NCBI GenBank assembly: GCA_964528615.1
Contig: CAZGSU010000024.1
Span: 10,459-74,458, forward strand
Origin: an uncultured Acidobacteriaceae bacterium
Lineage (GTDB): Bacteria; Acidobacteriota; Terriglobia; Terriglobales; Acidobacteriaceae
Length of the DNA stretch: 64,000 bases
Direction: 5' to 3'
The notes under the pieces are model-generated. The model saw only the letters and a list, made by a program, of their open reading frames with translations. It was not told the origin of the DNA and made no database searches. A program made the translations under genes and the position numbers. Positions 41,156-63,557 of this stretch are shown here, one piece after another (the first letter of the stretch is position 1; the number at the start of each line of letters is the position of its first letter).

Positions 41156-41277
41156 AGGCACCTCTTGAGTAAAACGGATGAGAATATCAGAAAAACCGGG
41201 TCGTGGTCTCGTAATGGCGGGCACTTTCGGGTGCCTGCGGAAGTGTAGACGCGAGAACCAATTACGATCAGGGACGG

Positions 41278-41565
41278 TCAGAGATATTCGAGAAAGGAAT
41301 CGGCAATATCAGCGCCGCCGTTGTTGGCGATGCTTGTCGCCTTGCGTTCCACATTTTTCATGAGTCCGTCGAGATAGTCGCGTGAATCCGAAATACCGAC
41401 CACGCCAATCGTCGCCCGGTTCCACAAGCCGCTGGGATCGAGCTCCGCCACGGCCACGTTGAAGTGGGCGCGCAGCCTGTCTTTCAGGCTGCGTACCACC
41501 TGCCGCTTGTCTTTGAGGGACTGCGCCGCTTCGATGTGCAGTTCGAGGGTGAGAAAAGCGATCAA
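41278..41565 (-). CDS. DUF503 family protein
   Basis: IAFLTLELHIEAAQSLKDKRQVVRSLKDRL. A TTG start at 41565 fits the family length. Lies between infB and rbfA. Confidence 0.8.
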   Translation of the reverse strand: MIAFLTLELHIEAAQSLKDKRQVVRSLKDRLRAHFNVAVAELDPSGLWNRATIGVVGISDSRDYLDGLMKNVERKATSIANNGGADIADSFLEYL

Positions 41566-41569
41566 GGAG

Positions 41570-41660
41570 GTCGTTGATCCTTGGTCGTTGGCCTTTGGCA
41601 ATAGCCAAATAAGAACTTCGGCATGTGCAGGTTTCGAGCCAACGGCCAACGACGAACGAC
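41570..41660. repeat. heptad-repeat inverted-arm element, family D (GYCKTTG)
   Basis: Left arm gtcgttgatccttggtcgttggcctttggc, right arm gccaacggccaacgacgaacgac. Lies in the infB-DUF503 spacer. Confidence 0.85.
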
Positions 41661-41665
41661 TGCTC

Positions 41666-44590: not shown

Positions 44591-44696
44591 CCGCCCTTTC
44601 CGTCCTGCAGACTGTCCGCGCTAAGTCTTCATATCAACCTCACGGCGTCAGCTTTGGGTCCTGCGAGTCGCTCGCGCCAGCGCGAGAGAATTGCAC

Positions 44697-46223
44697 TTAC
44701 TGCTTGTCCTCGGAAGCTGCAGGTTTGTCCGCGGACTCCGCCGGTTCTGCATCGCCGGCAGTTTCCTCGGGTTCGCTGGCTTCGACATCGCCAGCTTCGA
44801 GCATCGCTTCTTCGACAGTTCCTTCAGTTGCTTCTTCGACGGAAACCGTTTCGGCTTCTACACCCGCGGCTGCTTCCTCGACAGCACCCTCTGGAGCCGT
44901 TTCCCCATCAGCGGGCGTGGCGACGGCTTCACCGGTCTCGCCCGATTCCAGGCTGGCAAAATAATTATTGACTGCCAGACTGATTTTTTCCACCGTCTTG
45001 GGGCCAATCCCCTCGATAGCCTCCAGTTGCTCGGGGGTCATGTCCGCGAGGGATTCGACCGTGGTCACACCTGCTGCGCTCAGTTTCTCAATCAGCCCGT
45101 CACCCAGACCAGACACATTCTCCAGCGGGGTTGAGGCGGAACCCACCAGCGCCGACATCTGCTGTTCCACTTCCTGCCGCTTCTCTTCCTCGCTCTTGAT
45201 ATCGATCTTCCAGCCCAGCAGTTTCGCCGCCAGCCGGACATTCTGTCCCTTCTTGCCGATGGCAAGAGAAAGCTGGCTGTCGTCAACCACAACTTCCAGA
45301 TGCTTGTCCGCCGAATCGACCACGGTCACACGGCTTACCTTGGCAGGCTGCAGCGCCTTTTCTGCGAAGGTCACCGCGTCTTCGTGATACTCGATAATGT
45401 CGATCTTCTCGCCACGCAGCTCGCGGATGATGGACTGCACCCGCATGCCTTTCATGCCGACGCAGGCGCCAACCGCGTCCACGTCTTTATCCTTCGACAT
45501 GACTGCAATCTTGGTGCGCTCTCCGGCTTCACGCGCGATGGCGCGGATCACAACCGTTCCGTCATAGATTTCCGGGACTTCGGTCTGGAACAAGTGTTGC
45601 ACCAGTTCCGGCGCAGCCCGCGAAACCACGACCGCCGGCCCTTTTGAGGCCCGCTCCACCCGCGCAATGACCGCCCGGACGCGCTCGCCCATGGCGAACG
45701 ATTCCAGCCGCGACTGCTCTTTACGCGGCATGCGCGCTTCCGCTTTGCCGATGTCGAAGATCACATCCGGACCCTCGATCCGCTTCACGGTGGCGTTGAC
45801 GATCTCGCCGACGCGGCCGATGTACTCGTTGTACACAGTGTCGCGTTCCGCTTCCCGCACTTTCTGGAAGATCACCTGTTTCGCGAGCTGTGCCGCAATG
45901 CGTCCGAGGATTCCTTCGGTCTGCTTGTTGATCTGAAGCTCGCCACCAAGCTCGACATTGGGATTGATCTTGCGGGCATCATCCAGCGTGACCTGAAGCG
46001 AAGGGTCTTCCACCTGTTCCGGAGTCTCCACAATGGTCTTGACCGCAAAGGCGCGGATCTTGCCGGTCTCTTTGTCCAGTTCGGCGCGCAGGTTTTCCTG
46101 CGTCTTGTAATACTTGCGCGTCGCGACCACGATGGCATCTTCTACCGCGCTCACCACAATTTGCGGATCAATGCCTTTTTCCCGGCTCAACGCGTCGATC
46201 GTGTTATACAGCTCACTTGCCAT
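44697..46223 (-). CDS. nusA: transcription termination/antitermination factor NusA
   Basis: N-terminal, S1 and KH domain order (GRIAAQLAKQVIFQKVREAERD, GACVGMKGMRVQ, AIGKKGQNVRLA). HhH region and acidic tail. Confidence 0.96.
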   Translation of the reverse strand: MASELYNTIDALSREKGIDPQIVVSAVEDAIVVATRKYYKTQENLRAELDKETGKIRAFAVKTIVETPEQVEDPSLQVTLDDARKINPNVELGGELQINKQTEGILGRIAAQLAKQVIFQKVREAERDTVYNEYIGRVGEIVNATVKRIEGPDVIFDIGKAEARMPRKEQSRLESFAMGERVRAVIARVERASKGPAVVVSRAAPELVQHLFQTEVPEIYDGTVVIRAIAREAGERTKIAVMSKDKDVDAVGACVGMKGMRVQSIIRELRGEKIDIIEYHEDAVTFAEKALQPAKVSRVTVVDSADKHLEVVVDDSQLSLAIGKKGQNVRLAAKLLGWKIDIKSEEEKRQEVEQQMSALVGSASTPLENVSGLGDGLIEKLSAAGVTTVESLADMTPEQLEAIEGIGPKTVEKISLAVNNYFASLESGETGEAVATPADGETAPEGAVEEAAAGVEAETVSVEEATEGTVEEAMLEAGDVEASEPEETAGDAEPAESADKPAASEDKQ

Positions 46224-46255
46224 AGATAATTCCAGTCAACACAAACGGGAACTCT

Positions 46256-46352
46256 GCAATTGAGTGATTTTGAAATCGGGTAATTTTGTAATTTGAAACC
46301 CACCCGAGAAACCAGGGTTTGAAAATTACAAAATTACTCAATTTCCCAATGC
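46256..46352. repeat. heptad-repeat inverted-arm element, family F (AT-rich, GTAATTK)
   Basis: gggtaattttgtaatttgaaaccc (left) against gggtttgaaaattacaaaattactc (right), with loop acccgagaaacca. Lies in the nusA-rimP spacer. Confidence 0.9.
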
Positions 46353-51766: not shown

Positions 51767-51796
51767 CAGCTGTCAGCTCTCAGCCTTCAGCTAGAC
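51767..51796. repeat. short direct heptad array (CTSTCAG type)
   Basis: cagctgt cagctct cagcctt cagctag ac. Confidence 0.7.
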
Positions 51797-51799
51797 ACG

Positions 51800-51831
51800 A
51801 AAAAGGGACAGGCGAGAAGCCCGTCCCTTTT
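51800..51831 (-). terminator. intrinsic terminator after rplQ (A/T-flanked, potentially bidirectional)
   Basis: aaaagggac aggcgagaagcc cgtcccttttat. On the minus strand the stem is followed by ttttt. Lies 20 nt after the rplQ stop. Confidence 0.65.
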
Positions 51832-51851
51832 ATCAGTGCCTTCCTTAACTC

Positions 51852-52364
51852 TTACTCTTTGTCCTTGGCCTTGTCCTCGCCTTCGGCGTGGTCGGCGGGA
51901 TGCTCGACGCCTTGCTGCGCCTCGGCTTCTTCCATGGCCTTCTTAGCCTCTTCGGCGCGTTTGGAACGGACAGCCGCTCGCTTCTCGCGTTTTTCTTCCT
52001 GCAACTTCTCGCTGCCCAACAGCTCGATGAACGCCGTGTCGGCGCCGTCACCCTTGCGCCATCCGGCACGAACGATGCGCAGGTAACCGCCTTCGCGGTC
52101 CCCGAAACGCGGAGCGACCGTGTCGAAAAGGCGACTGACGGCTGCCTTGGTCATCAGGTAGGCGCCGGCCTGGCGGCGCGCGGAAAGGTCTCCGCGCTTG
52201 CCCAGCGTAATCATCTTTTCCACGATTGGCCGCATGGCTTTCGCCTTGGGCACGGTGGTTTCGATGCGCTCTTCGACGATGAGCGAAGTCACCAGGTTCC
52301 GCAGCAACGAGCGGCGGTGGCTGGTATTACGTCCCAGTTTCCATCCTGCAACTTTGTGACGCAT
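51852..52364 (-). CDS. rplQ: 50S ribosomal protein L17
   Basis: [24 protein letters not shown]. Lys/Glu-rich C-terminal extension. Confidence 0.97.
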
Positions 52365-52397
52365 TTGAATCCCTCGGGGCCAGTTAACGACAGATGG

Positions 52398-52506
52398 CCA
52401 GTTCAGTTCTGTATCTTGGTTTCCAGCTTCTGGTTTCCAGTTTCAAAATTCCTGGTCGCAGAAGAAACACGCAGCCTCAGGGATTTTGGAAACTGGAAAC
52501 GAAACC
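52398..52506. repeat. heptad-repeat inverted-arm element, family A (rpoA-rplQ spacer)
   Basis: Left core ggtttccagcttctggtttccagtttc (52418-52444). Right arm ttttggaaactggaaacgaaacc (52484-52506). Confidence 0.85.
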
Positions 52507-52527
52507 GGGTGGCGCAAGCGCCACCCG
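52506..52527 (-). terminator. 8-bp GC hairpin just after the rpoA stop (possible partial terminator or processing site)
   Basis: gggtggcg caag cgccaccc. On the minus strand it is followed by the T-rich family A arm tttcgtttccagtttcc. Confidence 0.4.
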
Positions 52528-52535
52528 GAACTGCT

Positions 52536-53570
52536 TTACAGATCGTTGTCCGGACCGTACGCCGATGCCGGCAGCACCTGGTTCGAAGTCGGGCCAGGCA
52601 CGGCATTGCCGTGCTCGTCGATCTTCATTCCCAGGCTCAACCCCATCGACGACAGAATCTCCTTGATCTCGTTCAGCGACTTGCGGCCGAAGTTCTTGGT
52701 CTTCAGCATTTCGGCCTCAGTCTTCTGCACCAGTTCTCCGATGGTCTGGATGTTCGCGTTCTTCAGGCAGTTGTAGCTGCGTACTGAGAGTTCCAGTTCC
52801 TCGACCGACCGGTTCAGGTTCTCGTTCTTGATTTCCGGCTTGCGGTCTTCGGTGGAAGTGGAGGTCTCGATATCCTCTTCGAAGTTGATGAAGATATTCA
52901 TGTGGTCCTTCAGCAGCTTCGCCGCCAGGCCGATGGAATCTGCCGGGGTGATGGAGCCGTTGGTCCACACTTCGAGCGTCAGCTTGTCGTAGTCGGTAAT
53001 CTGCCCCAGCCGTGCGGCTTCCACGGTGTAGTTGCACTTGCGCACCGGAGAGTGCACGGAGTCGATGGGGATGAAACCGATGCCCAGATCTTCGTCGAAG
53101 TTCTTGTCGGCCGCAACGTAGCCGCGGCCGCGCTTGAGGCGCATCTCCATATCGAGCTTGCCGCCTTCGCTGACGGTGGCGATGTAAACGTCCTTGTCGA
53201 GCACTTCCACGTCGGCGTCGGCTTCGATCATGCCGGAGGTAACCACGCCCGGCTGGTCAGCCCGCAGGTAGATAGCCTTGGGCGCGTCACCCGCCAGCTT
53301 GAACGGAATCTGCTTCAGGTTGAGGATGATGTCAGTCGCGTCCTCAACCACTCCGGGAATCGACTGGAATTCGTGCAGCACGCCTTCGATCTTGACCGCG
53401 GTTACCGCTGCTCCTTCGATCGAAGACAGCATAACGCGCCGCAGAGCGTTGCCGATGGTGGTCCCGAAGCCACGTTCAAAGGGCTGGGCCCAGAAGATGC
53501 CGTACTTGTCAGTTAGGGTTGAAGTGTCGACGGCGAGACGTTTGGGTTTTTGAAATCCCTTCCAAAGCAT
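52536..53570 (-). CDS. rpoA: DNA-directed RNA polymerase subunit alpha
   Basis: Start at [28 protein letters not shown], and [20 protein letters not shown]. Confidence 0.97.
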
Positions 53571-53674
53571 TACGTTGTTTCTCCCTCGGCCGTTTGGCTC
53601 AGTCCTGACATCCCTGAAGTGGTCCGAGTTCATTTCAGGTCAAGCGTCAGAGACAGGCTGATCTGGCTCGAATT

Positions 53675-53791
53675 GTTGGGACCTTGGTCGTTGGCCTTTG
53701 GCCAAACCAACAGCGAAACGACTGACAGATATCGTCGCAGGTCTTCGGCCCTTGATTTTTAGCTAACGACCAAGAGCCAACGACCAACGAC
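53675..53791. repeat. heptad-repeat inverted-arm element, family D (rpsD-rpoA spacer)
   Basis: Left arm gttgggaccttggtcgttggcctttggcc. Right arm gctaacgaccaagagccaacgaccaacgac. Confidence 0.88.
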
Positions 53792-54420
53792 TACTTGCTG
53801 TACAACTCCACAATCAACTGCTCGTTGACCGGCAGGTTGATATCTTCGCGCTTGGGCAACGCCAGAACCTTGCCTTTGTAATTATCGCGATCGATCTCCA
53901 GCCAGTTGGGTGCATTCTGGTGGCTGGCAAATTCCTTCGCCGGCTCCAGGATGGGCAACTTCTTGCTACCTTCGCGGATGGCGATCTCCTCGCCCATACT
54001 CACCTGGTACGACGGAATGTTTACCTTGCGCCCATTCACCTGGATGTGGCCGTGACGCACCAGCTGGCGCGCCTGGCGGCGGGACATGCCGAAACCGAGA
54101 CGGTAGACCACATTGTCCAGACGGCGCTCCAACTGTTGCAGAAGCATTTCGCCGGTAACGCCGCGAGTCCGGGCCGCTTTCTCGAAATAATTGCGGAACT
54201 GGCCTTCCTGGGTAAAGTAGATGCGCTTGGCTTTCTGCTTTTCGCGCAACTGCAAGCCGTAGCCGACAATCTTGGCCTTGCGGTCCTTGCCATGCTGGCC
54301 AGGAGCAAAATTCCGCTTCTCGATGGGACACTTATCGCTGAAGCACTTGGTGCCTTTGAGGAACAGCTTCATGCCCTCGCGGCGGCAGAGACGGCAGACG
54401 GGATCGGTATAACGCGCCAA
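53791..54420 (-). CDS. rpsD: 30S ribosomal protein S4
   Basis: [23 protein letters not shown]. Confidence 0.97.
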
Positions 54421-54486
54421 GTTGTTTTCTCCTTGTTAGATGACCGGTTTACAGGTTTGGCTTCACCCTTCGTCCCGGACCAAAAT

Positions 54487-54551
54487 CAGTTTCTAGTTGC
54501 TGGTTTCCAGTTTCCAGTCTGAGAACTGCGAACCAGAAACCGGAAACTGCC
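54487..54551. repeat. heptad-repeat hairpin, family A (rpsK-rpsD spacer, first)
   Basis: cagtttctagttgctggtttccagtttccagtctgag / cgaaccagaaaccggaaactgcc. Confidence 0.85.
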
Positions 54552-54573
54552 CTTTAAACAAAAAACGGCTGTC

Positions 54574-54630
54574 CCAGTTCTCTGTATCCAGTTTGAGCCA
54601 AAGGCTTTGAAACTAAGAACTCGGAAACTA
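54574..54630. repeat. heptad-repeat hairpin, family A variant (rpsK-rpsD spacer, second)
   Basis: ccagttctctgtatccagtttgag / ctttgaaactaagaactcggaaacta. Confidence 0.75.
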
Positions 54631-54633
54631 TCT

Positions 54634-55080
54634 TTACACCCTTCTCCTCTTCGGCGGACGGCAACCGTTGTGCGGGATCGGGGTAGCGTCTTTGATGTTG
54701 CGGACTTCGATACCGGCCGCAGCCAGCGCGCGGATTGCCGATTCGCGTCCAGAACCCGGACCGCTTACTCGGACCTCAACGCTGCGCACCCCGTGATCGC
54801 GCGCCATATTGGCCGCGTTCTGAGCCGCCTGCTGAGCAGCAAAGGGCGTCCCTTTACGCGATCCGCGAAAACCGAGCGACCCGGAACTCTTCCAGGCCAG
54901 AACATTTCCCGCCTGATCGGCGATCGTGACAATGGTGTTGTTGAACGAGGCCTGGATGTGGGCGATGCCGTGCGGAACGTGCTTCCGCTCCTTCTTCTTG
55001 AAGGTTTTCTTCTTGCCCTTTTTGTCCGGCGCCGCTGCTCCGGTCGCTCCCGCTGCCGCTGGTGCTGCTGTTTTTGCCAT
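54634..55080 (-). CDS. rpsK: 30S ribosomal protein S11
   Basis: [16 protein letters not shown]...[11 protein letters not shown]. Ala/Lys-rich N-terminal extension. Confidence 0.97.
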
Positions 55081-55083
55081 ATT

Positions 55084-55129
55084 AGCTTCTAGCTCCTAGC
55101 TTTTGGCTTCTAGCCAGGAGCTAGAAGCT
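55084..55129. repeat. heptad-repeat hairpin, family C (GCTNCTR) (rpsM-rpsK spacer)
   Basis: agcttctagctcct (55084-55097) pairs perfectly over 14 bp with aggagctagaagct (55116-55129). Confidence 0.92.
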
Positions 55130-55142
55130 AAACGCTGATTTG

Positions 55143-55529
55143 CTAAGTTTTTGCCGTCGCCTTCTTCTTTTGTGCGACCGTGCCTTTGCGTGGGCCCTTG
55201 CGGGTGCGCGCGTTGGTGTGGGTCCGTTGTCCGCGGACGGGCAGGTTCCGGCGATGGCGATAGCCGCGGTAGGAACCGATTTCGATGAGCCGCTTGATGT
55301 TCATCGAAACCTCCTTGCGCAGATCGCCTTCCACCAGACCTTCGTTTTCGATGACCTGGCGGATGCGGTTGACTTCGTCTTCACCCAGGTCTTGAACCTT
55401 TTTCATCGGGTCCACTTTGGCCGCGTCCAAGATGCGCGCCGCGCGCGGGTTGCCGATGCCGTAGATATAGGTCAGCGCGATATTCGCCCGCTTGTTGCGC
55501 GGAAGGTCAACGCCTGCAATACGTGCCAT
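55143..55529 (-). CDS. rpsM: 30S ribosomal protein S13
   Basis: [26 protein letters not shown]. Confidence 0.97.
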
Positions 55530-55541
55530 AGTGCTCCTCTA

Positions 55542-55655
55542 TTATCCCTGACGCTGCTTGTGCTTGGAAATGACGCAGATCACCCGCACCACGCCCTTGC
55601 GGTGGATGACCTTGCACTTGTCGCAAATTTTCTTGACCGATGCTCGTACTTTCAT
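55542..55655 (-). CDS. rpmJ: 50S ribosomal protein L36
   Basis: Hand translation gives [37 protein letters not shown], followed by TAA. Not in the ORF track because it is under 60 aa. Confidence 0.93.
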
Positions 55656-55660
55656 AGACC

Positions 55661-55685
55661 CAGCCTTCAGCCTTCAGCCGTCAGC
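55661..55685. repeat. short direct heptad array (CAGCCKT) (infA-rpmJ spacer)
   Basis: cagcctt cagcctt cagccgt cagc. Confidence 0.75.
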
Positions 55686-55713
55686 AAACCCGCGACGACG
55701 GAGGAGGCGGCAT

Positions 55714-55932
55714 TCATTTGTAGCGGTACACGATGCGGCCGCGGTTCAGGTCGTAGGGCGAAAGCTCGACTGCGACCTTGTCACCGGGCAGGATGCGAAT
55801 GAAGTTCTTGCGCATTTTTCCCGAGACGTGCGCCAGCACCTGGTGCTTGTTTTCCAGTTCCACACGGAACATGGCGTTGGGCAGCGGCTCGACTACCGTT
55901 GCCATAACCTCAATCGCGTCCTCTTTGCTCAT
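55714..55932 (-). CDS. infA: translation initiation factor IF-1
   Basis: [53 protein letters not shown]. Confidence 0.97.
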
Positions 55933-55946
55933 CGACTCCTTAGAAT

Positions 55947-56036
55947 CAGCTGCTAGCTTCTGGCTACTAGCTTCTCGCTAAATCCCACAACTTTCGGTTC
56001 GGGCTAGCAGCTAGAAGCCAGTAGCTAGAAGCTGCC
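55947..56036. repeat. heptad-repeat inverted-arm element, family C (map-infA spacer)
   Basis: Left arm cagctgctagcttctggctactagcttctcgc. Right arm ggctagcagctagaagccagtagctagaagctgcc. Confidence 0.9.
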
Positions 56037-56789
56037 TTACTGCGTCAAAATCATCGGGCCATCTTTCATGATCGCGACGCAATGCTCGAAGTGGGCACTG
56101 TAGCTGCCATCGGCAGTTACGGCGGTCCACTTGTCATCGAGAACGCGAGTTCCGGGATTGCCGGAATTCACCATGGGCTCGATGGCCAGCACCATGCCTT
56201 CGCGCAACCGGGCCCCGTGTCCACGAGTACCATAGTTCGGCACCTGCGGTTCTTCGTGCAGACGGGTTCCAATTCCGTGTCCCACAAATTCGCGAACCAC
56301 GCTGAAGCCATTGGCCTCCACGAACTCCTGTACCGACGCCCCAACATCTCCAACCGCGTTTCCGATTCTGGCCGCCTCGATACCACGGTACAACGACGCT
56401 TCAGTGACTTCGAGCAGCTTGGACAGCTCGGGCGTAATCGATCCATCCACCGGAACGGTGATGGCAGCATCGCCGTAATAGCCGTCAAGCACCACGCCGC
56501 AATCGATGGAAACGATATCGCCGGCTTTGAGCAGTCTCTTCTCCGAGGGAATGCCGTGCACGATTTCTTCATTGATCGAGGTGCAAAGCACGCAGGGATA
56601 ATCGTAGTACCCCTTGAACGCAGGCTTCACCCCCAGATCCTTGATCTTCTGTTCGGCAGCGCGCTCGAGATCCATAGTGGTCGCGCCCGGCGCCACCAGG
56701 CCGCGAACATGGTTCAGAACCTCGCGCACGATGCCGCCACTGCGCCGCATCTTCTCAATCTCGGCCGCCGATTTGCAGACAATCGCCAT
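56037..56789 (-). CDS. map: type I methionyl aminopeptidase
   Basis: IVSIDCGVVLDGYYGD, FVGHGIG, LAIEPM and SAHFEH metal-ligand contexts. Confidence 0.96.
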   Translation of the reverse strand: MAIVCKSAAEIEKMRRSGGIVREVLNHVRGLVAPGATTMDLERAAEQKIKDLGVKPAFKGYYDYPCVLCTSINEEIVHGIPSEKRLLKAGDIVSIDCGVVLDGYYGDAAITVPVDGSITPELSKLLEVTEASLYRGIEAARIGNAVGDVGASVQEFVEANGFSVVREFVGHGIGTRLHEEPQVPNYGTRGHGARLREGMVLAIEPMVNSGNPGTRVLDDKWTAVTADGSYSAHFEHCVAIMKDGPMILTQ

Positions 56790-56812
56790 GTGCCGTTTCT
56801 TGACTTCGTGGT

Positions 56813-57529
56813 TCAGTTGTTGCGAGCCACGGCGCGATGGCTCTCGATCACCTGAAAGATCTGCTCCGTAACCTGTTCGACCGGCAGATCGCCGTCCACC
56901 GAAACCAGCCGCCCTTTGCCCTCGTAGTATTCGGCAACCGGCTTGGTCTGCAGTTCGTAGGCCGCCAGTCGTTCCCGGATGATTTCTTCACGATCATCTT
57001 CGCGGGTCACCAGCGTAGAACCATCAACATCGCATCGATCAGCGACACGGGGTGGCTGGGAGTAGACGTTGTAGATCCGTCCACAGACGGGACAAGAGCG
57101 GCGTCCGGTAATCCGACGCAACAACTTATTATAGTCCACGTTAATTCGGATCACAATGGGCAGGCACGTGCCACGCTGCGCGTTATCAAAGAACTCGTGC
57201 TCCAGAAATGCATCCAGCCATCCGGCCTGGGCCGGATTGCGGGGAAAACCATCCAGAATGAAGCCGCGCTCGCAGTCCGCCTGCCGCAAGCGCTGGGCGA
57301 CCATGTCGTAGACCAGGTCATCCGGCACCAATTCGCCCCGCGCCATCACATCCTTGGCCGCCACTCCCAAAGGAGTGCCGCGCTGCACATTTTCACGGAG
57401 AAGATCGCCCGTGGAAATCTGTGGAATGCGGTAGTGCTCGACTATCTGTTTGGCCTGCGTCCCTTTACCCGCGCCCGGCGAGCCGAGCAGGATGACAGGT
57501 CCGATGCCGCGCGAGGTTGTCTCCGCCAT
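56813..57529 (-). CDS. adk: adenylate kinase (Zn-lid type)
   Basis: Start at MAETTS. P-loop GSPGAGKGTQ and lid CPVCGRIY...DRCDVDG. Confidence 0.95.
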   Translation of the reverse strand: MAETTSRGIGPVILLGSPGAGKGTQAKQIVEHYRIPQISTGDLLRENVQRGTPLGVAAKDVMARGELVPDDLVYDMVAQRLRQADCERGFILDGFPRNPAQAGWLDAFLEHEFFDNAQRGTCLPIVIRINVDYNKLLRRITGRRSCPVCGRIYNVYSQPPRVADRCDVDGSTLVTREDDREEIIRERLAAYELQTKPVAEYYEGKGRLVSVDGDLPVEQVTEQIFQVIESHRAVARNN

Positions 57530-57641
57530 CGAACTGGTCCTCCAGCCCCCCGATTCCAATTCCGTTCAACCAGCACGACGAGCCGACTTCAACCTCTGTT
57601 CGCCCTTACTCATTAACACGAACTCTATCCAGCCGCCTGGC

Positions 57642-59030
57642 TCAAGACCAGGTGCGGCGCCCGCGAATACGCCCGCTGCGCGGCGTAAAGCCGTCATAGT
57701 GGCGCATCACCAGTTGGGCTTCGATCTGGGTCACCGTGTCCATGGCTACGCCAACCACAATCAGCAGCGATGTGCCGCCAAAGTAAAAGTTGACGCCTAG
57801 CCCGTTGGTCATCCAGGTAGGAAGCCGCTCGAAAAACGCTCCAATCGGCCCGTAGAGATGGTTCAGGTGAATTCCCGTAATCATCCACTCCGGAATGAAG
57901 GAGATGATAATCAGGTAGAGCGCGCCCACCAGCGTGATCCGGGTCAGAATCTCGTTGATGTGGTCCGCAGTGCGCTTGCCAGGACGAATGCCGGGAATGA
58001 ACCCGCCGTACTTGCGCATGTTGTCCGCAACCTCGTTGGGGTTGAAGACAATCGAAACATAGAAATAGGCGAAAAAGATGATTCCCACCGCATACAGAAA
58101 AGTGTAAAGCGGTTCCCCCCATCCCAGGTTGCGGATCAGCTCTCCAAAATAGCGGTTGTTGCGCAGGCTGTAGCCCACGGTCTGCGGCAGGGTCAGGATC
58201 GACGAGGCGAAAATTACCGGCATAACGCCGCCCGAGTTTACCCGCAAGGGCAGGTGCGTAGACTGCCCGCCCATGACCTTGCGCCCGACCACCCGCTTGG
58301 CGTACTGGACCGGGATCCGGCGCTCGCAACGCTCCACGTAGACTATGAAAGCCACCACCAGGATCATCACACCGATCAGCATGATCATGGCCGGCGCAGT
58401 AAAGGCGCCCCAGGCGTCGGTGCGGACCTTGTCGAAGAGATCGATGATTCCACGCGGCAAGCCCACCACAATGCCGGCGAAGATCAGCAGCGACATGCCG
58501 TTGCCCACGCCGCGCTCGGTAATCTGTTCACCCAGCCACATGATGAAGGCGCTCCCCGTGGTCAGGGTCAGCATGGTCATCAGGACGAAGGCCGCGCCGG
58601 GATGGACAACGAAGTCTCCGCTGCGTTGCAGCTGCCAGGCGATGCCGAAAGACTGGATCGAGGCCAGGATCACGGTGAGGTAACGCGTCCACTGCGTGAT
58701 CTTCTTGCGTCCCAGTTCGCCCTCTTTCTGTAGTTTGGCCAGGGGCTCGTAGACCACGGTAAGCAGCTGCAAGATGATCGACGCCGTGATGTACGGCATG
58801 ATGCCCAAAGCGAAGATGGTCAAACGGCGGAGCTGGCCACCGGAAAAGAGATCAACGAAGCCCAGCAGACTGCCTTTGTTCTGCTCAAAAAACTGTTGCA
58901 GCTTGTCCGCATTGACACCCGGCGTGGGGATATGACCGCCCAGGCGGTAAACCGCCAGCAAGCCCAGGGTAAACAGAATGCGCTTGCGCAGGTCCGGAAT
59001 GCGAAAGACGTTGGCCAGTTTTTCCAGCAT
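57642..59030 (-). CDS. secY: preprotein translocase subunit SecY
   Basis: 10-TM protein with LFSGGQLRRLTIFALGIMPYITASI. Confidence 0.97.
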   Translation of the reverse strand: MLEKLANVFRIPDLRKRILFTLGLLAVYRLGGHIPTPGVNADKLQQFFEQNKGSLLGFVDLFSGGQLRRLTIFALGIMPYITASIILQLLTVVYEPLAKLQKEGELGRKKITQWTRYLTVILASIQSFGIAWQLQRSGDFVVHPGAAFVLMTMLTLTTGSAFIMWLGEQITERGVGNGMSLLIFAGIVVGLPRGIIDLFDKVRTDAWGAFTAPAMIMLIGVMILVVAFIVYVERCERRIPVQYAKRVVGRKVMGGQSTHLPLRVNSGGVMPVIFASSILTLPQTVGYSLRNNRYFGELIRNLGWGEPLYTFLYAVGIIFFAYFYVSIVFNPNEVADNMRKYGGFIPGIRPGKRTADHINEILTRITLVGALYLIIISFIPEWMITGIHLNHLYGPIGAFFERLPTWMTNGLGVNFYFGGTSLLIVVGVAMDTVTQIEAQLVMRHYDGFTPRSGRIRGRRTWS

Positions 59031-59034
59031 GGGG

Positions 59035-59469
59035 CTACAACACCTCGAACTTGCCGCCGGCCTTGGTGATCTTCTCCTGGGCCGACTTGGAAAACTTGTG
59101 AGCGTGCACGGTGAGCGCGATGGTAAGTTCCCCGTCGCCCAGCACCTTCAACCGGTTCTTGCCCTTGATCACGCCCGCCTTGCGCAACACCTCGGGCGTG
59201 ATAGTGGTCTCGCCCAGCGCTGCCAGCTTCTCCAGATTCACGATGTTGAATTCCTGGCGGAAGATGTTGGTGAATCCGCGTTTGGGCATGCGGCGATGCA
59301 AAGGCATCTGGCCGCCTTCAAAGCCGCGCATCATGCGCGAGCCGCTGCGTGACCGCTGGCCTTTGTGCCCGCGAGTGGAGGTCTTGCCCATCCCCGAACC
59401 CATACCGCGGCCGACGCGCTTCTTGTTCGCTGTCGCCTTCTTTGGTGCGCGAATATTAGAAAGATTCAT
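59035..59469 (-). CDS. rplO: 50S ribosomal protein L15
   Basis: GRGMGSGMGKTSTRGHKGQRSRSG. Confidence 0.97.
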   Translation of the reverse strand: MNLSNIRAPKKATANKKRVGRGMGSGMGKTSTRGHKGQRSRSGSRMMRGFEGGQMPLHRRMPKRGFTNIFRQEFNIVNLEKLAALGETTITPEVLRKAGVIKGKNRLKVLGDGELTIALTVHAHKFSKSAQEKITKAGGKFEVL

Positions 59470-59477
59470 AGCAATAA

Positions 59478-59540
59478 GCTCTCAGCACAGCTATCAGCTC
59501 CCAGTCTTGCTGAGGACTGATGACTAACGACTTAGGACTG
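59478..59540. repeat. heptad-like inverted arms (CTCAGCW type) (rpmD-rplO spacer)
   Basis: gctctcagcacagctatcagctcccagtc / gctgaggactgatgactaacgac. Confidence 0.7.
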
Positions 59541-59750
59541 AACTATCTCCACCAGATGCGGCACCTTGGCCACCATGCCGCGGATGGCCGGATTGTCAGG
59601 CCGCTCGATCACCTGGTTCAGCCGGGTGAAACCCAGCCCCTTCACCACCAGCTTCTGCTGGACGGGAGCGCAAATGGCGGAGCGCACCCACTTCAACTGG
59701 ATCTTGGCGCCGCCGCCCGCATACGTTTTCTTGGCCAATTTATTGGGCAT
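59532..59750 (-). CDS. rpmD: 50S ribosomal protein L30
   Basis: IQLKWVRSAICAPVQQKLVVKGLGFTRLNQ, plus operon position. Confidence 0.93.
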   Translation of the reverse strand: MPNKLAKKTYAGGGAKIQLKWVRSAICAPVQQKLVVKGLGFTRLNQVIERPDNPAIRGMVAKVPHLVEIVQS

Positions 59751-59752
59751 GA

Positions 59753-60265
59753 TTACAGTTCCTCAGCCGTCTTGCCGCGCATGGCGGCAACGTCACTCCG
59801 GTTCTTCAGATGTTTGAGCGCATCGAACGTCGCCTTGATCACGTTGTGCGGGTTGGTGGTGCCGATGGACTTGGTCAGCACGTTCTGCACTCCCACCGAG
59901 TTCATGACCGCGCGCACCGCGCCGCCGGCGATGACGCCAGTACCTTCCGGAGCCGGTTTCAGCAGCACCCGGCCGGAACCGAAACGTCCCAGCACCAAGT
60001 GTGGAATGCTGGTCTGCGTAAGGTTGACCCGCATCAGGTTCTTCTTCGCCGACTCAATTCCCTTGCGGATGGCCTGGGGGACTTCCTTGGCTTTTCCTGA
60101 GCCGTAGCCTACGACCGCAGCGCTGGGATCTCCCACTACCACCAGGGCAGCGAAGGAGAGGTTCTTGCCTCCCTTAACCACTTTCGTGACGCGATTGATC
60201 GCGACCACTTGGTCTTTCAGTTGGTAAGAATTCGCATCAAGCTTCTTAATGACTGTTGGCATCAT
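59753..60265 (-). CDS. rpsE: 30S ribosomal protein S5
   Basis: [27 protein letters not shown]. Confidence 0.97.
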
Positions 60266-60270
60266 GCCTC

Positions 60271-60372
60271 ATTTTGTAATTTCGTAATCGGGTAATTTAG
60301 TAATTGAAAAACTCATCATGTGATTCGGTCTTAAGTTACACAACTACCCAATTACACAATTTCTCAATTCCC
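60271..60372. repeat. heptad-repeat inverted-arm element, family F (rplR-rpsE spacer)
   Basis: Left arm attttgtaatttcgtaatcgggtaatttagtaattg. Right arm gttacacaactacccaattacacaatttctcaattccc. Confidence 0.85.
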
Positions 60373-60737
60373 TAGAACTGCAGTCCGGCTTCACGCGCGG
60401 AATCGGCCAGGGCCTTAACCCGTCCGTGATAAATGTAGCCGCCGCGATCGAATACGACCTTGTTGATCCCCTTGGCCTTGGCGCGCTCGGCGATATTCTT
60501 GCCGACCGTCTTGGCGGCGGCAAGGTTGCCTCCGGTGCGCTTCTCTCCCTTCTTGCCTTCGGCCGAGTTTGCCGACACCAGGGTCGCGCCATGCAGATCG
60601 TCAATCAACTGAACGTAAATATGATTCAGTGAGCGATACACATTCAGCCGCGGCCGCTCGGCGGTGCCGAGAATCTTTTTGCGGATGCGTTCGTGAACGT
60701 GCCGCCGGTTCTGGTTCTTGGAGGTTTGCGTAAGCAT
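60372..60737 (-). CDS. rplR: 50S ribosomal protein L18
   Basis: Start at [42 protein letters not shown]. Confidence 0.96.
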
Positions 60738-60748
60738 TTTTTCCAGTC

Positions 60749-60877
60749 CTTGGCCGTTGGTCGTTGGTCGTTGGCAAAAGCCCAACCATCACGACTCTCA
60801 AATATGGCTGATGGGTATCACCCATCCCTTGCCGTTCGGGGTTGGCCAACGACCAAGGACCAACGACCAACGACGAC
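60749..60877. repeat. heptad-repeat inverted-arm element, family D (rplF-rplR spacer)
   Basis: Left arm ccttggccgttggtcgttggtcgttggc. Right arm ggccaacgaccaaggaccaacgaccaacgacgac. The interior holds the 7-bp hairpin gatgggt atc acccatc. Confidence 0.9.
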
Positions 60878-61416
60878 TACTTCGCTCCCGTCTTCCCAAC
60901 CTTCTTCTTCAAGCGCTCGCCCACATAGCGCACGCCCTTGTTCTTATACGGATCGGGCGGCCGCAGGCTGCGCATTTCGGCTGCGACCTGACCCACCTTC
61001 TGGCGGTCGATGCCGGTGACGCTCAGCTTGGTCTGCTTGGGATCGACCGTCGCTTCAATCCCAACCGGCAGCGGGTACTCAATGGGATGAGAATATCCCA
61101 GGCTGAATACCACGGTGCCCTTTCCCTTCAACTCGGCGCGATATCCGATGCCGACAATTTCCAGTTCGCGGGTCCAGCCCTTGGTGACACCCTCAACCGC
61201 GTTGTTGACCAGGGCGCGGGCCAGCCCGTGCACCGCCGCCTGCGAATCGTTCTCGCGGATGGCCACCAGGTTGCCGTCCTGCTGCTCCACCCGGATGCCG
61301 CGGGGCAGTTGGGTATCCAGCTTGCCCTTGGGCCCCTGCACGGCGACCACGTTGCCCTCAATCTTGACCGCTACCCCCTTGGGGAGCGGGATCGGCTTTC
61401 TTCCAATTCTTGACAT
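60877..61416 (-). CDS. rplF: 50S ribosomal protein L6
   Basis: [22 protein letters not shown]. Confidence 0.97.
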
Positions 61417-61417
61417 A

Positions 61418-61534
61418 GGCTTCTAGCTTCTAGCTCCTGGCTTCTAGCCAAGTCGCGTTTCTGCGATTACCGCAAGATGTTCCAACTCGCCGCGCTCCGT
61501 AGCTAGTAGCCAGTAGCTAGTAGCTAGAAGCGGC
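61418..61534. repeat. heptad-repeat inverted-arm element, family C (rpsH-rplF spacer)
   Basis: Left arm ggcttctagcttctagctcctggcttctagcc. Right arm gtagctagtagccagtagctagtagctagaagcggc. Confidence 0.9.
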
Positions 61535-61536
61535 TC

Positions 61537-61935
61537 CTACCAAATCTCGCACAGTACTTCGCCGCCAACGCCCTGCTTGCGGGCCTGGCGTCCGGTCATC
61601 ACTCCGCGCGGGGTGGTCAGGATATTGATGCCCAGACCGCCCAGCACGCGCGGGATTTCGCTGCGCCGCACATAGACCCGGCAACCCGGCCGGGAGACGC
61701 GCTCCACGTTCGAGATCGCGGCTTCGTTATTGTTGCCATACTTCAGATAGATCCGCAGGACCTTGTGGCCTTCCTCTTCCGCGGGCTTGAAATTGGAGAT
61801 GTAGCCTTCCTCTTTGAGGATGCGGGCAATCTCCAGCTTCAGCTTGGAAGCGGGAACGTCTACCTTTTGATGGCGGGCGCGGATCGCATTCCGAATGCGC
61901 GCCAGCATGTCTGCGACCGGATCGGTCAACCTCAT
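61537..61935 (-). CDS. rpsH: 30S ribosomal protein S8
   Basis: LTDPVADMLARIRNAIRARH. Confidence 0.97.
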   Translation of the reverse strand: MRLTDPVADMLARIRNAIRARHQKVDVPASKLKLEIARILKEEGYISNFKPAEEEGHKVLRIYLKYGNNNEAAISNVERVSRPGCRVYVRRSEIPRVLGGLGINILTTPRGVMTGRQARKQGVGGEVLCEIW

Positions 61936-62010
61936 CGTTTGCTTCTCCTCCGCCGCCCGTTTGCTTCGGTCATCACTGCCCTGCCCCGAAGAACCCGCGA
62001 CGACGTGCTG

Positions 62011-62035
62011 TGTGGCGCGGGCGCCCTTGCCCGCG
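62011..62035 (+). repeat. GC-rich REP-like 25-mer hairpin, copy 3 (rpsN-rpsH spacer)
   Basis: tgtggcgcgggcgcccttgcccgcg. It differs from the other copies only at the two loop positions. Confidence 0.85.
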
Positions 62036-62046
62036 TCCCTTCTTTC

Positions 62047-62268
62047 CTACCACGACGACTTCGAAACTCCGGGAATTTCTCCCCGCAAAGCCAGCCCCCG
62101 GAAACACAGGCGGCAGATGCCGAATTTGCGCAGATACGCCCGCGGGCGCCCGCACAGTTTGCAGCGGTTGTGTCGGCGCGAGGAAAATTTCAGCTTCGGC
62201 CCTTTGCCGCGCGCCTTGTCATACTTTGCTTCGATCTTTGCGTCCTTCACCCGTTTTGCAGTAGTCAA
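62047..62268 (-). CDS. rpsN: 30S ribosomal protein S14 (zinc-binding form)
   Basis: [40 protein letters not shown]. 73 aa with a short N-terminal extension. Confidence 0.95.
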
Positions 62269-62278
62269 TTTACCTTTC

Positions 62279-62330
62279 GCTCCTAGCTTCTGGTTGCCAG
62301 ATCTCAGCCTGCAGCCGCCAGCTCTCAGTC
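62279..62330. repeat. heptad fragments (family C piece plus CTCAGCC-type piece) (rplE-rpsN spacer)
   Basis: gctcctagcttctggttgcc followed by cagatctcagcctgcagccgccagctctcagtc. Confidence 0.6.
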
Positions 62331-62367
62331 AAGACCTGATCCAAATCTCTGGCACTCAATTTCTAAT

Positions 62368-62991
62368 CTACGGACGGAACGGCATGCCTAGATGCTTCAA
62401 CAGCAGGCGTGCCTGATCGTCGTTTCCCGCCGTGGTCACGATGGTGACGTTCATCCCCTTGGTCTTGTCCACGCGGGAATAATCGATCTCGGGAAAAATC
62501 AGCTGGTCGTGCAAACCCAGGGTATAGTTTCCGCGGCCATCGAACGACTTGGTTGAGACCCCCTTGAAGTCGCGCACCCGGGGCAGCGCCACGTTCACCA
62601 GCCGATCGAAAAACTCGTACATGCGATCCCCGCGCAGCGTGACCATGGCACCGATGGCCTGGCCTTCGCGCACTTTGAAGGCCGCAATCGACTTCCTGGC
62701 CCGGGTCGTCACCGGCTTCTGGCCCGTAATCTGGCCCAGTTCGTTGACCGCTGGGTCGAGGATCTTGGCGTTCTGAGTGGCTTCGCCCACACCCATGTTG
62801 ACCACGATCTTGTGCAGGTGAGGCACCGCCATCGGGTTCTTCAGGTCGAATTCCTTCATCAAGGCGGGTGCAACTTCAGCCTTGAACCGGCTCTTAAGCC
62901 GGGGCGTCTCCTTGGCGCTGTGATGCGCCTGCGCCGGCTTCGCCTCCTGCTGCTGCTTTTCGCCTTGCTTCTCTTTTTTCTCTTTTGCCAT
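62368..62991 (-). CDS. rplE: 50S ribosomal protein L5
   Basis: [19 protein letters not shown]...VNMGVGEA. About 28-aa Lys/Glu/Gln-rich N-terminal extension. Confidence 0.96.
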
Positions 62992-63008
62992 TTGTTTCCT
63001 CTGGAACC

Positions 63009-63086
63009 CAGCTGCTAGCTACTGGCTTCTAGCTTCTAACTTCAAACCGCGGTTTTTTGTGCTCTGGCTAGCAGCTAGCAGCTATT
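63009..63086. repeat. heptad-repeat inverted-arm element, family C (rplX-rplE spacer)
   Basis: Left arm cagctgctagctactggcttctagcttctaac. Right arm ctggctagcagctagcagctatt. Confidence 0.88.
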
Positions 63087-63089
63087 TTG

Positions 63090-63434
63090 CTACTTATCCA
63101 GCGTGGCGCCGCACTTGCGGCACACTCGCACTTTGCGCTCGCCCTGGTACTCGTGCCCGATCCGCACCGGGCGCTTGCAACTGGTACACATCAGGGCCAC
63201 GTTGGAGATGGCAATCCGGCTCTCCTGTTCCGCGATCCCGCCTTTTACGTTCCGCTGCGGATTGGGCCGGACATGCTTCTTGACCAGCATCACGTGCTCG
63301 ACCAGGATCTTGGCGTCGTTGGGAAAAACTCGCAGCACGCGGCCTTCTTTTCCCTTGTCGCGGCCAGTAATCACTTTCACCGTATCGTTGCGGCGAAGGT
63401 CGACTCGTTTGTGTTCTGTCGCTACTGTCTTCAT
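63090..63434 (-). CDS. rplX: 50S ribosomal protein L24 (C-terminal Cys4 zinc-ribbon variant)
   Basis: DTVKVITGRDKGKEGRVLRV KOW motif. C-terminus CTSCKRPVRIGHEYQGERKVRVCRKCG. Confidence 0.96.
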   Translation of the reverse strand: MKTVATEHKRVDLRRNDTVKVITGRDKGKEGRVLRVFPNDAKILVEHVMLVKKHVRPNPQRNVKGGIAEQESRIAISNVALMCTSCKRPVRIGHEYQGERKVRVCRKCGATLDK

Positions 63435-63448
63435 AAGAACCCTTAACC

Positions 63449-63557
63449 AAATTTAGTAATTGAGTAATTTTGTAATTTTGCCATTGAAAATTCATTTCCC
63501 CACTGATTCTGGGTTCAATTACCAAATTGCTCAATTACGCAATTGCTCAATTACTCC
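63449..63557. repeat. heptad-repeat inverted-arm element, family F (rplN-rplX spacer)
   Basis: Left arm aaatttagtaattgagtaattttgtaattttgcc. Right arm caattaccaaattgctcaattacgcaattgctcaattactcc. Confidence 0.88.

Follow-up and report, generated by a model that had tools for sequence, protein, structure and literature searches.

The ribosomal spc/alpha operon of an uncultured Acidobacteriaceae bacterium, a soil acidobacterium of the order Terriglobales, carries hairpins made of short tandem repeats in most of its long intergenic spacers. The stretch of 64,000 nucleotides (nt) that was analysed, hereafter the window, comes from the assembly GCA_964528615.1 (contig CAZGSU010000024.1, positions 10,459-74,458 of the forward strand) and contains the operon on its minus strand, from rplN (63934-63563) through rplQ (52364-51852). 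The gene calls, which agree with independent calls on contigs of the same species, confirm the canonical order noticed in an earlier reading of this DNA made without database searches (the sequence-only reading): rplN, rplX, rplE, rpsN, rpsH, rplF, rplR, rpsE, rpmD, rplO, secY, adk, map, infA, rpmJ, rpsM, rpsK, rpsD, rpoA, rplQ. The spacers measure 128, 98, 99, 111, 120, 139, 106, 2, 62 and 4 nt from rplN-rplX to rplO-secY and 112, 23, 104, 58, 12, 62, 213, 220 and 171 nt from secY-adk to rpoA-rplQ, reproducing all 19 lengths given in that reading. These lengths rest on starts of rplR at 60737, adk at 57529 and rpoA at 53570; public calls place the start of rpsN 18 nt further downstream, in which case the rplE-rpsN spacer would be 117 nt long.

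Of the 15 spacers that measure 58 nt or more, ten (rplN-rplX, rplX-rplE, rpsH-rplF, rplF-rplR, rplR-rpsE, map-infA, rpsM-rpsK, rpsK-rpsD, rpsD-rpoA and rpoA-rplQ) contain a gapless inverted repeat of period 7 or 8 with a score of 11.5 to 23.5; a score of at least 10 was reached in none of 300 shuffled spacers. As RNA, all ten fold more stably than expected from 200 dinucleotide shuffles (z from -2.6 to -6.4), which is the outcome of a comparison that the sequence-only reading had proposed. Its claim that every long spacer is occupied by a repeat hairpin is too strong, being borne out at these ten junctions, whereas the other five lack a significant fold; its detailed spacer-by-spacer list is largely accurate, and most of the one-armed or decayed cases already appear there. 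Each arm of a hairpin is a tandem array of 7-nt or 8-nt units that mirrors the opposite arm, with period 7 (or 8) detected by Tandem Repeats Finder (TRF) in both arms; the stems contain approximately one mismatch in every seven pairs, where the variable base of the unit falls. The families of units found overall are GCTNCTA, GCTNTCA, GCTNTTR, GTCGTTG, GTTTCNR, GTAATTGN and CAGTGGN. In the window, GCTNCTA units build the hairpins of rplX-rplE, rpsH-rplF, map-infA and rpsM-rpsK, GTCGTTG units those of rplF-rplR and rpsD-rpoA, GTTTCNR units those of rpsK-rpsD and rpoA-rplQ, and the 8-mer unit GTAATTGN those of rplN-rplX and rplR-rpsE.

In the direction of transcription (all coordinates are on the minus strand), the first hairpin, with 8-nt units of the GTAATTGA type, occupies 63450-63555 between rplN and rplX (score 18, period 8, z = -2.6), and the inverted repeat scan places its 5' arm at 63544-63517 and its 3' arm at 63477-63450. 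It is followed by the rplX-rplE hairpin at 63009-63084 (arms 63083-63067 and 63026-63010; score 12, period 7, z = -3.2), by the rpsH-rplF hairpin, with four GCTNCTA units, at 61419-61531 (arms 61531-61502 and 61448-61419; score 22.5, minimum free energy (MFE) -60 kcal/mol, z = -6.1) and by the rplF-rplR hairpin, GTCGTTG against CAACGAC, at 60746-60874 (arms 60874-60834 and 60786-60746; score 23.5, MFE -71.3, z = -6.0). The rplR-rpsE hairpin lies at 60271-60360 (score 11.5, period 8, z = -4.3), that of map-infA at 55947-56034 (score 19.5, MFE -51.3, z = -5.1) and that of rpsM-rpsK, a near-perfect stem of 20 bp, at 55082-55131 (score 17.5, MFE -34.8, z = -6.4). The rpsK-rpsD spacer contains a first, weaker GTTTC-type hairpin at 54568-54628, which is present in the MFE structure only and is not the top inverted repeat of the spacer, and a second one at 54487-54549 (GTTTCNR against YNGAAAC; score 13.5, period 7, z = -3.6). 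The rpsD-rpoA hairpin (53684-53787; score 13, MFE -49.9, z = -5.6) begins 3 nt past the rpsD stop codon. Directly after rpoA, the fold contains a GC hairpin with a TTTCGTTTCC tail (52505-52528; ten pairs, nine of them G-C) that precedes the heptamer hairpin of the rpoA-rplQ spacer (52433-52500, GTTTCCA against TGGAAAC; score 15, z = -5.9 when folded jointly with the GC hairpin).

The five long spacers in which no significant fold was found are rplE-rpsN (z = -0.4), rpmD-rplO (-0.2), infA-rpmJ (-0.1), secY-adk (-1.3) and rpsN-rpsH (-1.8). Two of them hold one-armed arrays, namely a purine-rich heptamer array (CTGAGAG / CTGGCGG / CTAGGAG) with no partner arm at 62279-62328 between rplE and rpsN, and (GCTGAAG)n at 55660-55686 (TRF 55661-55685, period 7), just 5' of rpmJ. 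The rpmD-rplO spacer retains a decayed GCTNTCA-type element (59470-59531), and in secY-adk no repeat was found, as the sequence-only reading had also reported. The rpsN-rpsH spacer contains, in addition to a conserved leader (see below), a GC-rich palindrome, GACGCGGGC..GCCCGCGCC, at 62014-62037, which is not a heptamer hairpin and corresponds to the "REP 25-mer" placed here previously. This palindrome with its CCACA tail represents a second kind of repeat, with a related pair at 15269-15291 and 15402-15424 in the window and a near-identical copy at the rpsN-rpsH junction of one relative (L006 in the survey described below).

The arrangement proposed in the sequence-only reading, in which the stop codon is followed by the hairpin, the Shine-Dalgarno sequence and the next start, describes most junctions but not rpsH-rplF, rpsM-rpsK and rplF-rplR, where the stem includes positions -15 to -4 (10-12 of the 12 are paired). 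At rpsH-rplF, 11 of these 12 positions are paired and the stem stops only 2 nt short of the rplF ATG; at rpsM-rpsK, all 12 are paired and the stem covers the ribosome-binding region of rpsK. At these three junctions, the opposite strand of the stem starts 2-11 nt past the upstream stop codon. The base of the stem would be expected to mask the ribosome-binding region, and a ribosome that terminates 2-11 nt upstream would unwind the stem; opening of a stem by a terminating ribosome is a classical route of translational coupling.

The hairpins are not confined to the ribosomal operon. The same families are present at rimP-nusA (46272-46345), at infB-DUF503 (41578-41659) and 3' of rbfA (40665-40794), and the lptB-rpoN junction also bears these hairpins (9307-9433); the types involved in the minus-strand rimP-nusA-infB-DUF503-rbfA operon (40665-46345) and in lptB-rpoN (9263-9435) are GTAATT, GTCGTTG and AGTCNTC. 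Furthermore, hairpins occupy four of the ten convergent gaps and one divergent gap in the window. All ten operon hairpins and eight of the nine others are located 3' of at least one gene, the location characteristic of repetitive extragenic palindromic (REP) sequences. Tandem arrays that run in one direction only were observed as well: (AATGCCA) x8.9 at 37931-37992 and the 14-nt unit GACTTTGACTCTCA x6.2 at 15300-15383.

To place these observations in a phylogenetic context, we used a secY-centred scan that yielded 80 loci from Terriglobales and Bryobacterales-type outgroups, with the 20 genes of each locus annotated by tblastn (loci are referred to by L numbers where needed). In the 52 complete Terriglobales loci, the rplN-rplQ spacers together amount to 1192-2845 nt per locus (median 1813), with a median of 96 nt for individual spacers, compared to a sum of 313-846 nt and a median spacer of 20 nt in the outgroups; the earlier statement that these junctions are far longer than those of compact operons thus extends to the order. 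Long spacers are present in all 52 loci, an inverted repeat score of at least 10 is reached in 40% of 1026 spacers, and 25 of the 52 loci contain at least five periodic hairpins; in 12 loci there are no heptamer hairpins, and the long spacers are filled by other palindromes. For each of the 19 junctions, even the tight ones of the window, there is at least one relative with a periodic hairpin. The median distances for 280 hairpins are 5 nt from the stop codon to the 5' arm and 21 nt from the end of the 3' arm to the next start, with arms of approximately 26 nt and loops of approximately 28 nt; the period is 7 in 237 of the period-classified hairpins of the relatives. After subtraction of the hairpin, the spacers have a median length of 23 nt (interquartile range 15.5-51), close to the 16.5 nt median of the outgroup spacers, and therefore the hairpins behave as discrete inserts in otherwise ordinary short spacers; at the junctions with leaders, 84 nt are left after removal of the hairpin, compared to 65 nt in the outgroups. 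Intergenic palindromes of this sort are found throughout the genome and throughout Terriglobales, and the modules of the operon are part of that population.

Several loci of the survey deserve separate mention. Other palindromes include AGAGACGTAGC..GCTACGTCTCT, found in several spacers of L005, and GTCATCCC/TGAGC..GGATCTGC-like repeats in long spacers of Granulicella-type loci (L043, record OZ243943.1; L006, record CAVSNM010000002.1, 4.35 Mb; and L013; adk-map and others). Metagenome-assembled genomes of Terracidiphilus also carry the hairpins. Two metagenome-assembled genomes labelled 'Candidatus Binatia' and 'Candidatus Eisenbacteria' (L014 and L024) contain a Terriglobales-like operon with the same hairpins and with SecY sequences that are 83-84% identical; judging by these similarities, the contigs are probably mis-binned.

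The hairpins turn over rapidly between species and are stable within one. In ten same-species contigs from different samples (99.8-99.9% identity), the hairpins are preserved, with no 7-nt indels and no change of unit number in any arm; the density of variants in the spacers is approximately four times that in the coding sequences, and the rpoA-rplQ hairpin in particular shows small indels and single-nucleotide polymorphisms. These data bear on the idea that the arrays are hypermutable simple sequence repeats (SSRs) serving as contingency (phase-variation) switches, which would be in line with the tandem heptamer arms, heptamers being over-represented among bacterial SSRs (PMC4692102, PMC4679880). 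However, given that no unit-number polymorphism was detected in the ten contigs, that units of the same arm differ from each other and that the genes involved are essential housekeeping genes, we rejected this candidate and consider it the least credible of the explanations discussed here.

In the nearest relative, L091 (SecY 97% identical, approximately 85% nucleotide identity over the operon), about five hairpins belong to the same family as in the window, their arms well conserved and their loops diverged, and five of approximately 11 have switched family, although the adjacent leaders are 98-100% identical. The rplF-rplR hairpin is orthologous in the two genomes (arms approximately 95% identical, loop diverged), the rpsM-rpsK hairpin is approximately 90% conserved, and the GTAATTGN family at rplR-rpsE is found also in L091, L006, L013 and L007. 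By contrast, units of the GCTNTTA type in L091 correspond to GCTNCTA in the window at rplX-rplE, those of the GCTNTCA type correspond to GCTNCTA at rpsH-rplF, and the second rpsK-rpsD hairpin and the rpoA-rplQ hairpin are replaced by the CAGTGGN type. The GC hairpin after rpoA has no counterpart in L091, and the rplN-rplX spacer there is only 17 nt long and lacks a hairpin; conversely, the rpmD-rplO element that is decayed in the window is an intact GCTNTCA-type hairpin in L091. At rpsD-rpoA, the GTCGTTG family is shared by L091, L001, L006 and L013, whereas L005, L002 and L007 have other families. Among the one-armed arrays, the one at rplE-rpsN is approximately 80% conserved with L091, and (GCTGAAG)n at infA-rpmJ is kept in L001, L003, L007, L009 and L091.

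The same picture emerges from 30 genome pairs with 84-94% secY nucleotide identity: in 195 of 293 comparisons, the hairpin was replaced, absent or unalignable, and in 98 an alignable ortholog was found; the pairs at 91-94% identity show the same pattern of turnover. In some cases, the change is concerted. The rpsH-rplF hairpins of L025 and L026 consist of TCAGCTN/NAGCTGA and TCAGTTN/NAACTGA, respectively, and the map-infA hairpins of the window and L091 consist of GCTNCTA and GCTNTTA units between the same flanks (CAGCT...AGCTG); in both instances, every unit of both arms differs by one compensated base pair. A family is shared at the same junction 449 times compared to 289 +/- 17 expected by chance, an excess that fits partial inheritance. 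The alignment of the operon in relatives, which the sequence-only reading had called for, accordingly shows that the presence and placement of the hairpins are clade-wide, and that the family is often swapped or the hairpin missing at a given junction.

If the hairpins acted primarily as RNA structures, selection on their pairing would be expected to leave strand-specific traces. The foremost alternative to a DNA-level origin is that stems have been selected, with any stable one sufficing, as punctuation that insulates the cistrons, sets processing or exonuclease stops, lets every ribosomal-protein gene be translated and autoregulated independently, and in effect replaces the translational coupling of compact operons. 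The tests for RNA-level selection do not point in this direction: there is no excess of G.U over A.C mismatches (264 vs 253); the sense minus antisense MFE difference of -2.04 kcal/mol is compositional because shuffled sequences give nearly the same gap (-1.88); and no pair-specific compensation was found, double changes amounting to 16.6% at true pairs and 18.3% at a unit-shifted control. The strand- and pair-specific conservation of base pairs that characterizes structured RNAs was not detected in the hairpins, and purine.purine mismatches outnumber pyrimidine.pyrimidine ones (300 vs 182), which is probably explained by the purine-rich sense strand. Also speaking against punctuation are the dispensability of the hairpins at any given junction in close relatives, the persistence of decayed copies, the 12 of the 52 loci that have long spacers without heptamer hairpins, and the presence of the same elements in convergent gaps and one divergent gap. 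Much of the outcome named in the sequence-only reading as pointing to neutral selfish insertions was observed, namely replaced or absent hairpins in related genomes with no strand-specific selection on pairing (195 of 293 comparisons and null pairing tests). Its suggestion that neighbouring spacers mostly use different families, which would favour local folding over cross-pairing, describes the window accurately but matches chance: among the relatives, 53 of 248 adjacent pairs share a family compared to 54.1 +/- 4.8 expected, so that no avoidance between neighbours is apparent and the argument from local folding is not supported.

The hairpins also do not resemble transcription signals. That they adjust transcript levels gene by gene, as terminators or attenuators within the operon, would be suggested by the GC hairpin with a T-rich tail after rpoA (52505-52528) and by T-rich tails found after 10.6% of 303 hairpins in the relatives. 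Nevertheless, none of the ten heptamer hairpins of the window is followed by a U-tail, and 3' arms are predominantly A-rich (175 vs 17), the opposite of a terminator; accordingly, we rejected intrinsic termination by the heptamer hairpins, the GC hairpin after rpoA being the sole terminator-like site inside the operon, and the explanation as a whole appears very improbable. The GC hairpin itself is terminator- or attenuator-like and could be an attenuator between rpoA and rplQ. Internal promoters are not enriched in the spacers (four promoter-like sites compared to 4.4 expected), and a search of Rfam produced no match to the hairpins at the gathering score and only spurious microRNA models at E values up to 5. 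The operon ends with a terminator, GGGACGGGC..GCCTGTCCC followed by TTTTT (approximately 51800-51827), after which a lone (GCTGANA)n array is located (51767-51794; TRF 51767-51792).

Taken together, the elements are palindromic inserts just past stop codons, with fast turnover, concerted change of units and strand-symmetric structure potential, and without terminator tails. We therefore lean, with moderate confidence, towards the view that the hairpins are REP-like modules, akin also to the short tandemly repeated repetitive (STRR) sequences of cyanobacteria, that are maintained at the DNA level and tolerated in operons, with at most generic hairpin effects; they are probably not a tailored regulator. 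The course of events that we envisage is that an ordinary spacer of approximately 20 nt, which at rpsH, rpsD and rpoA would also include a conserved leader, received a discrete palindromic module a few bases past the stop codon. Such modules would then be gained, lost and swapped between families on the time-scale of species divergence, with units changing in concert, through propagation or homogenisation at the DNA level by a selfish or a recombination/slippage-driven process. Two properties may account for their being tolerated in essential operons. Their arms lack U-tails, and in the transcript the two arms would snap together and loop out the insert, so that the distance from the stop codon to the following ribosome-binding site would be similar to that in compact operons. 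A stable hairpin would be expected to block 3'-exonucleases, stabilising the upstream segment, and to weaken coupling of the reinitiation type. With cistrons separated by 60-140 nt of folded RNA, most junctions are unlikely to permit simple coupling by termination and reinitiation.

Strand-symmetric structure potential would be compatible also with a function of the DNA itself, the elements serving as sites for gyrase or nucleoid proteins or as cruciform-prone sequences that relieve supercoiling in heavily transcribed operons. By analogy, such a role could be considered given the proposed roles of REP sequences and bacterial interspersed mosaic elements (BIMEs) in DNA topology and nucleoid structure (PMC12306157) and the occurrence of the hairpins in conserved, presumably highly transcribed operons (spc/alpha, nusA-infB and lptB-rpoN). 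However, neither a protein that binds the elements nor a conserved recognition sequence is apparent, the units differ freely between families, the 7-nt period does not match the helical repeat of DNA, and hairpins are absent at the same sites in some close relatives; we regard a DNA-level function of this kind as improbable.

Several observations weigh against the view of DNA-level modules with generic effects. First, a mobilising mechanism was not found in the loops, the flanks or the window: no transposase was detected among the 20 open reading frames (ORFs) of the 64-kb window that were scanned with Pfam, and there is no target-site duplication at pairs of loci that differ in the presence of a hairpin, the loops being unrelated between copies. 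Second, occupancy is high and clade-wide, and long gaps are occupied more often in the operon (10 of 15) than elsewhere in the window (9 of 31; p = 0.025), a modest enrichment in a small sample. Third, the mirror order of the arms goes beyond what periodicity yields (18.3 observed compared to 16.2 when whole units are shuffled and the register is re-optimised); an origin by inverted duplication, correction within the palindrome or selection on pairing would each yield such an order. Fourth, purines predominate on the mRNA strand of one-armed arrays (54 vs 12; lone arrays in the relatives are A-rich in 49 cases and T-rich in 14), which could reflect either selection at the RNA level or the tolerance or usefulness of purine-rich sequence beside ribosome-binding sites. 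Fifth, in orthologs that are retained, arms are better conserved than loops (0.84 vs 0.68), although low complexity biases this comparison. Finally, a T-rich 5' arm is combined with an A-rich 3' arm in 246 hairpins and the reverse holds in 40 (L001-L091 and the window), a polarity that, the elements being palindromes, holds on both strands. It is possible that the reverse order would put a U-rich tract after inner stems and cause termination, or that the polarity comes from shared descent of the families; avoidance of Rho, with the C-rich arm transcribed last, was dropped as a cause given that the polarity lies in T/A and is unclear in G/C (156 vs 123).

Part of this evidence is what selected punctuation would predict, namely the mirror-ordered arms, the purine-rich lone arrays on the mRNA strand and the enrichment of the operon over the rest of the window. 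The same applies to the long spacers of all 52 loci with at least five periodic hairpins in 25 of them, to the consistent placement 5 nt past the stop and 21 nt before the start, to the separate conserved leaders at rpsH, rpsD and rpoA, and to the sharing of families at the same junction (449 vs 289 +/- 17), although the latter is expected from shared ancestry alone. With the results of the pairing tests included, we consider adaptive punctuation possible but rather unlikely.

The conserved leaders are distinct from the repeats: sequence that is conserved and free of repeats accounts for approximately 61 nt in rpsK-rpsD, 105 nt in rpsD-rpoA and 65 nt in rpsN-rpsH, next to hairpins that change. 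The rpsH leader (61936-62005), conserved across Terriglobales, consists of two helices followed by GGAGGAGAAG and the start codon, and all ten predicted pairs show changes on both sides in some sequences among 33 relatives; it may be a feedback site for S8 located at its own gene rather than at rplE. The rpsD leader (54421-54481) was delineated by sequence comparison as GNNCGG-GACGAAG-variable hairpin-GUAAA-CCGNNC followed by AAGGAG. It is identical in L091 over all 61 nt, although the adjacent hairpin has been replaced, and the motif is found, with covariation in its helices, in Terriglobales and Bryobacterales; the helices became visible after the sequences were anchored on GTAAA, RNAalifold on a poor MAFFT alignment having given no structure. 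This leader is a likely candidate for the autoregulatory (feedback) site of S4, and because of it rpsK-rpsD is long even in the compact operons of the outgroups. The rpoA leader (53571-53675, approximately 105 nt) is approximately 98% identical to that of L091 and is recognisable across Terriglobales. Neither the rpsH nor the rpsD leader matches an Rfam family at gathering or lenient thresholds; both look like gene-proximal feedback sites, and the presence of separate leaders directly 5' of rpsH, rpsD and rpoA would fit gene-by-gene control.

Other features of the operon may be noted here. Just 5' of rplE, a conserved stem, CACGAACCGG ... CCGAAACCGTGAG, is found in L003, L005, L007, L009, L036 and L043 and is missing in the window, L001, L002 and L013; it may be an rplE-proximal leader that was lost in some lineages. 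The rplE product (207 aa in total) has an N-terminal extension of approximately 27 residues rich in Lys, Glu and Gln (window 62911-62991, minus strand), which is present also in the same-species contigs and in L091 (208 aa). The Rfam model Alpha_RBS (RF00140) gives a sub-threshold match at 55497-55593 on the minus strand (25.7 bits compared to the gathering score of 38, E = 0.015) that covers the tight rpmJ-rpsM junction, the classical S4 site of the alpha operon.

Combined, the leaders and the hairpins allow a bolder scenario, which we put forward as speculation that is probably wrong in this form: Terriglobales would have rebuilt the expression of ribosomal proteins such that hairpins that depend on structure and not on sequence punctuate nearly every cistron, the 7-nt period is read by an RNA- or single-stranded DNA-binding protein or a nuclease, cutting or protection divides the mRNA into units under separate control, in the manner of chloroplast operons, and the leaders of rpsH, rpsD and rpoA assume the feedback control otherwise exerted through translational coupling.

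The spc/alpha operon is the textbook case of tight gene packing, translational coupling and feedback that spreads downstream from one binding site. Every junction accepts a hairpin of approximately 100 nt in some genome, and therefore close spacing is not essential at any junction in these organisms; with a spacer total of 1.2-2.8 kb, compared to 0.3-0.85 kb in neighbouring orders, Terriglobales, an abundant order of soil bacteria, provide a natural test of how much coupling the synthesis of ribosomes needs. The unit-level concerted evolution and the swapping of families at fixed sites call for a mechanism. On the practical side, repeats of this sort break short-read assemblies and yield spurious ORFs, such as the 'LVVGPWSLA...' frames over GTCGTTG arrays. 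Hairpins made of heptamer arrays are known mainly from cyanobacteria and are now extended to Acidobacteriota, where the saturation of a ribosomal operon with them across a whole order is notable.

We found no description of these elements in Acidobacteria in the literature, the coverage of which was incomplete, so that this is not proof of absence. Among known systems, miniature inverted-repeat transposable elements (MITEs) such as Correia/NEMIS, ERIC and RUP are similar in being short non-coding inserts with inverted ends and co-transcribed hairpins that can alter mRNA stability. However, a MITE is recognised by a conserved consensus over its full length, by terminal inverted repeats that are clearly defined and by target-site duplications; no conserved internal sequence, terminal inverted repeats or target-site duplications were seen here, and we rejected this assignment.

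The resemblance to the REP, BIME and REPIN (REP doublet) sequences of Enterobacteria and Pseudomonas lies in the abundance of imperfect palindromes just past stop codons, in operons or in convergent gaps. REPs are mostly located 3' of coding regions (PMC3733652), and elements of this group are transcribed, can stabilise the upstream mRNA and form lineage-specific families that turn over quickly, with a presumed selfish origin (PMC3733652, PMC3116915, PMC12306157). REPs differ, however, in having a consensus of 20-40 nt with a GTAG or CGTC head and a link to REP-associated tyrosine transposases (RAYTs). In the families described here, copies have only the 7-8 nt unit in common and differ in unit order, unit number and loops; their arms consist of tandem arrays, and the window revealed no RAYT. 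A RAYT-type REP/REPIN consensus was accordingly rejected. Some GTCGTTG-type arms start with CGTCG, which is part of the unit and not a REP head. Acidobacteria-specific RAYT-like 'TIRYT' genes have been reported (PMC3733652).

Heptamer arrays enriched in intergenic regions, located between the same genes of related species but with extensive variation of length and sequence, are known in Xanthomonas (GGGAATC, some copies of which are inverted) and in Beggiatoaceae and cyanobacteria (TAACTGA) (PMC4692102, PMC4679880). Those arrays are mostly direct, consist of a single unit and are G-quadruplex-prone or located just 5' of starts, whereas those of Terriglobales are two-armed and belong to several families.

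The closest parallel is provided by the STRR sequences of cyanobacteria, among them hairpins of 7-bp repeats of unknown function between hupS and hupL, with roles in transcript stability or translational coupling having been suggested for such hairpins (PMC2670836); as quoted in the same source, Jackman and Mulligan (1995) wrote of 'highly variable but structured intergenic regions'. As in the hupS-hupL and nif spacers, the Terriglobales elements consist of tandem 7-nt units whose inverted arrays can pair into a hairpin in the spacers of co-transcribed genes, and they are present in many spacers and variable between close relatives. To the extent that published descriptions can be compared, they differ from STRR sequences in their occurrence in another phylum, Acidobacteriota, in the sequences of their units, in the coexistence of several families, in the variable position within each unit and in filling most junctions of the spc/alpha operon.

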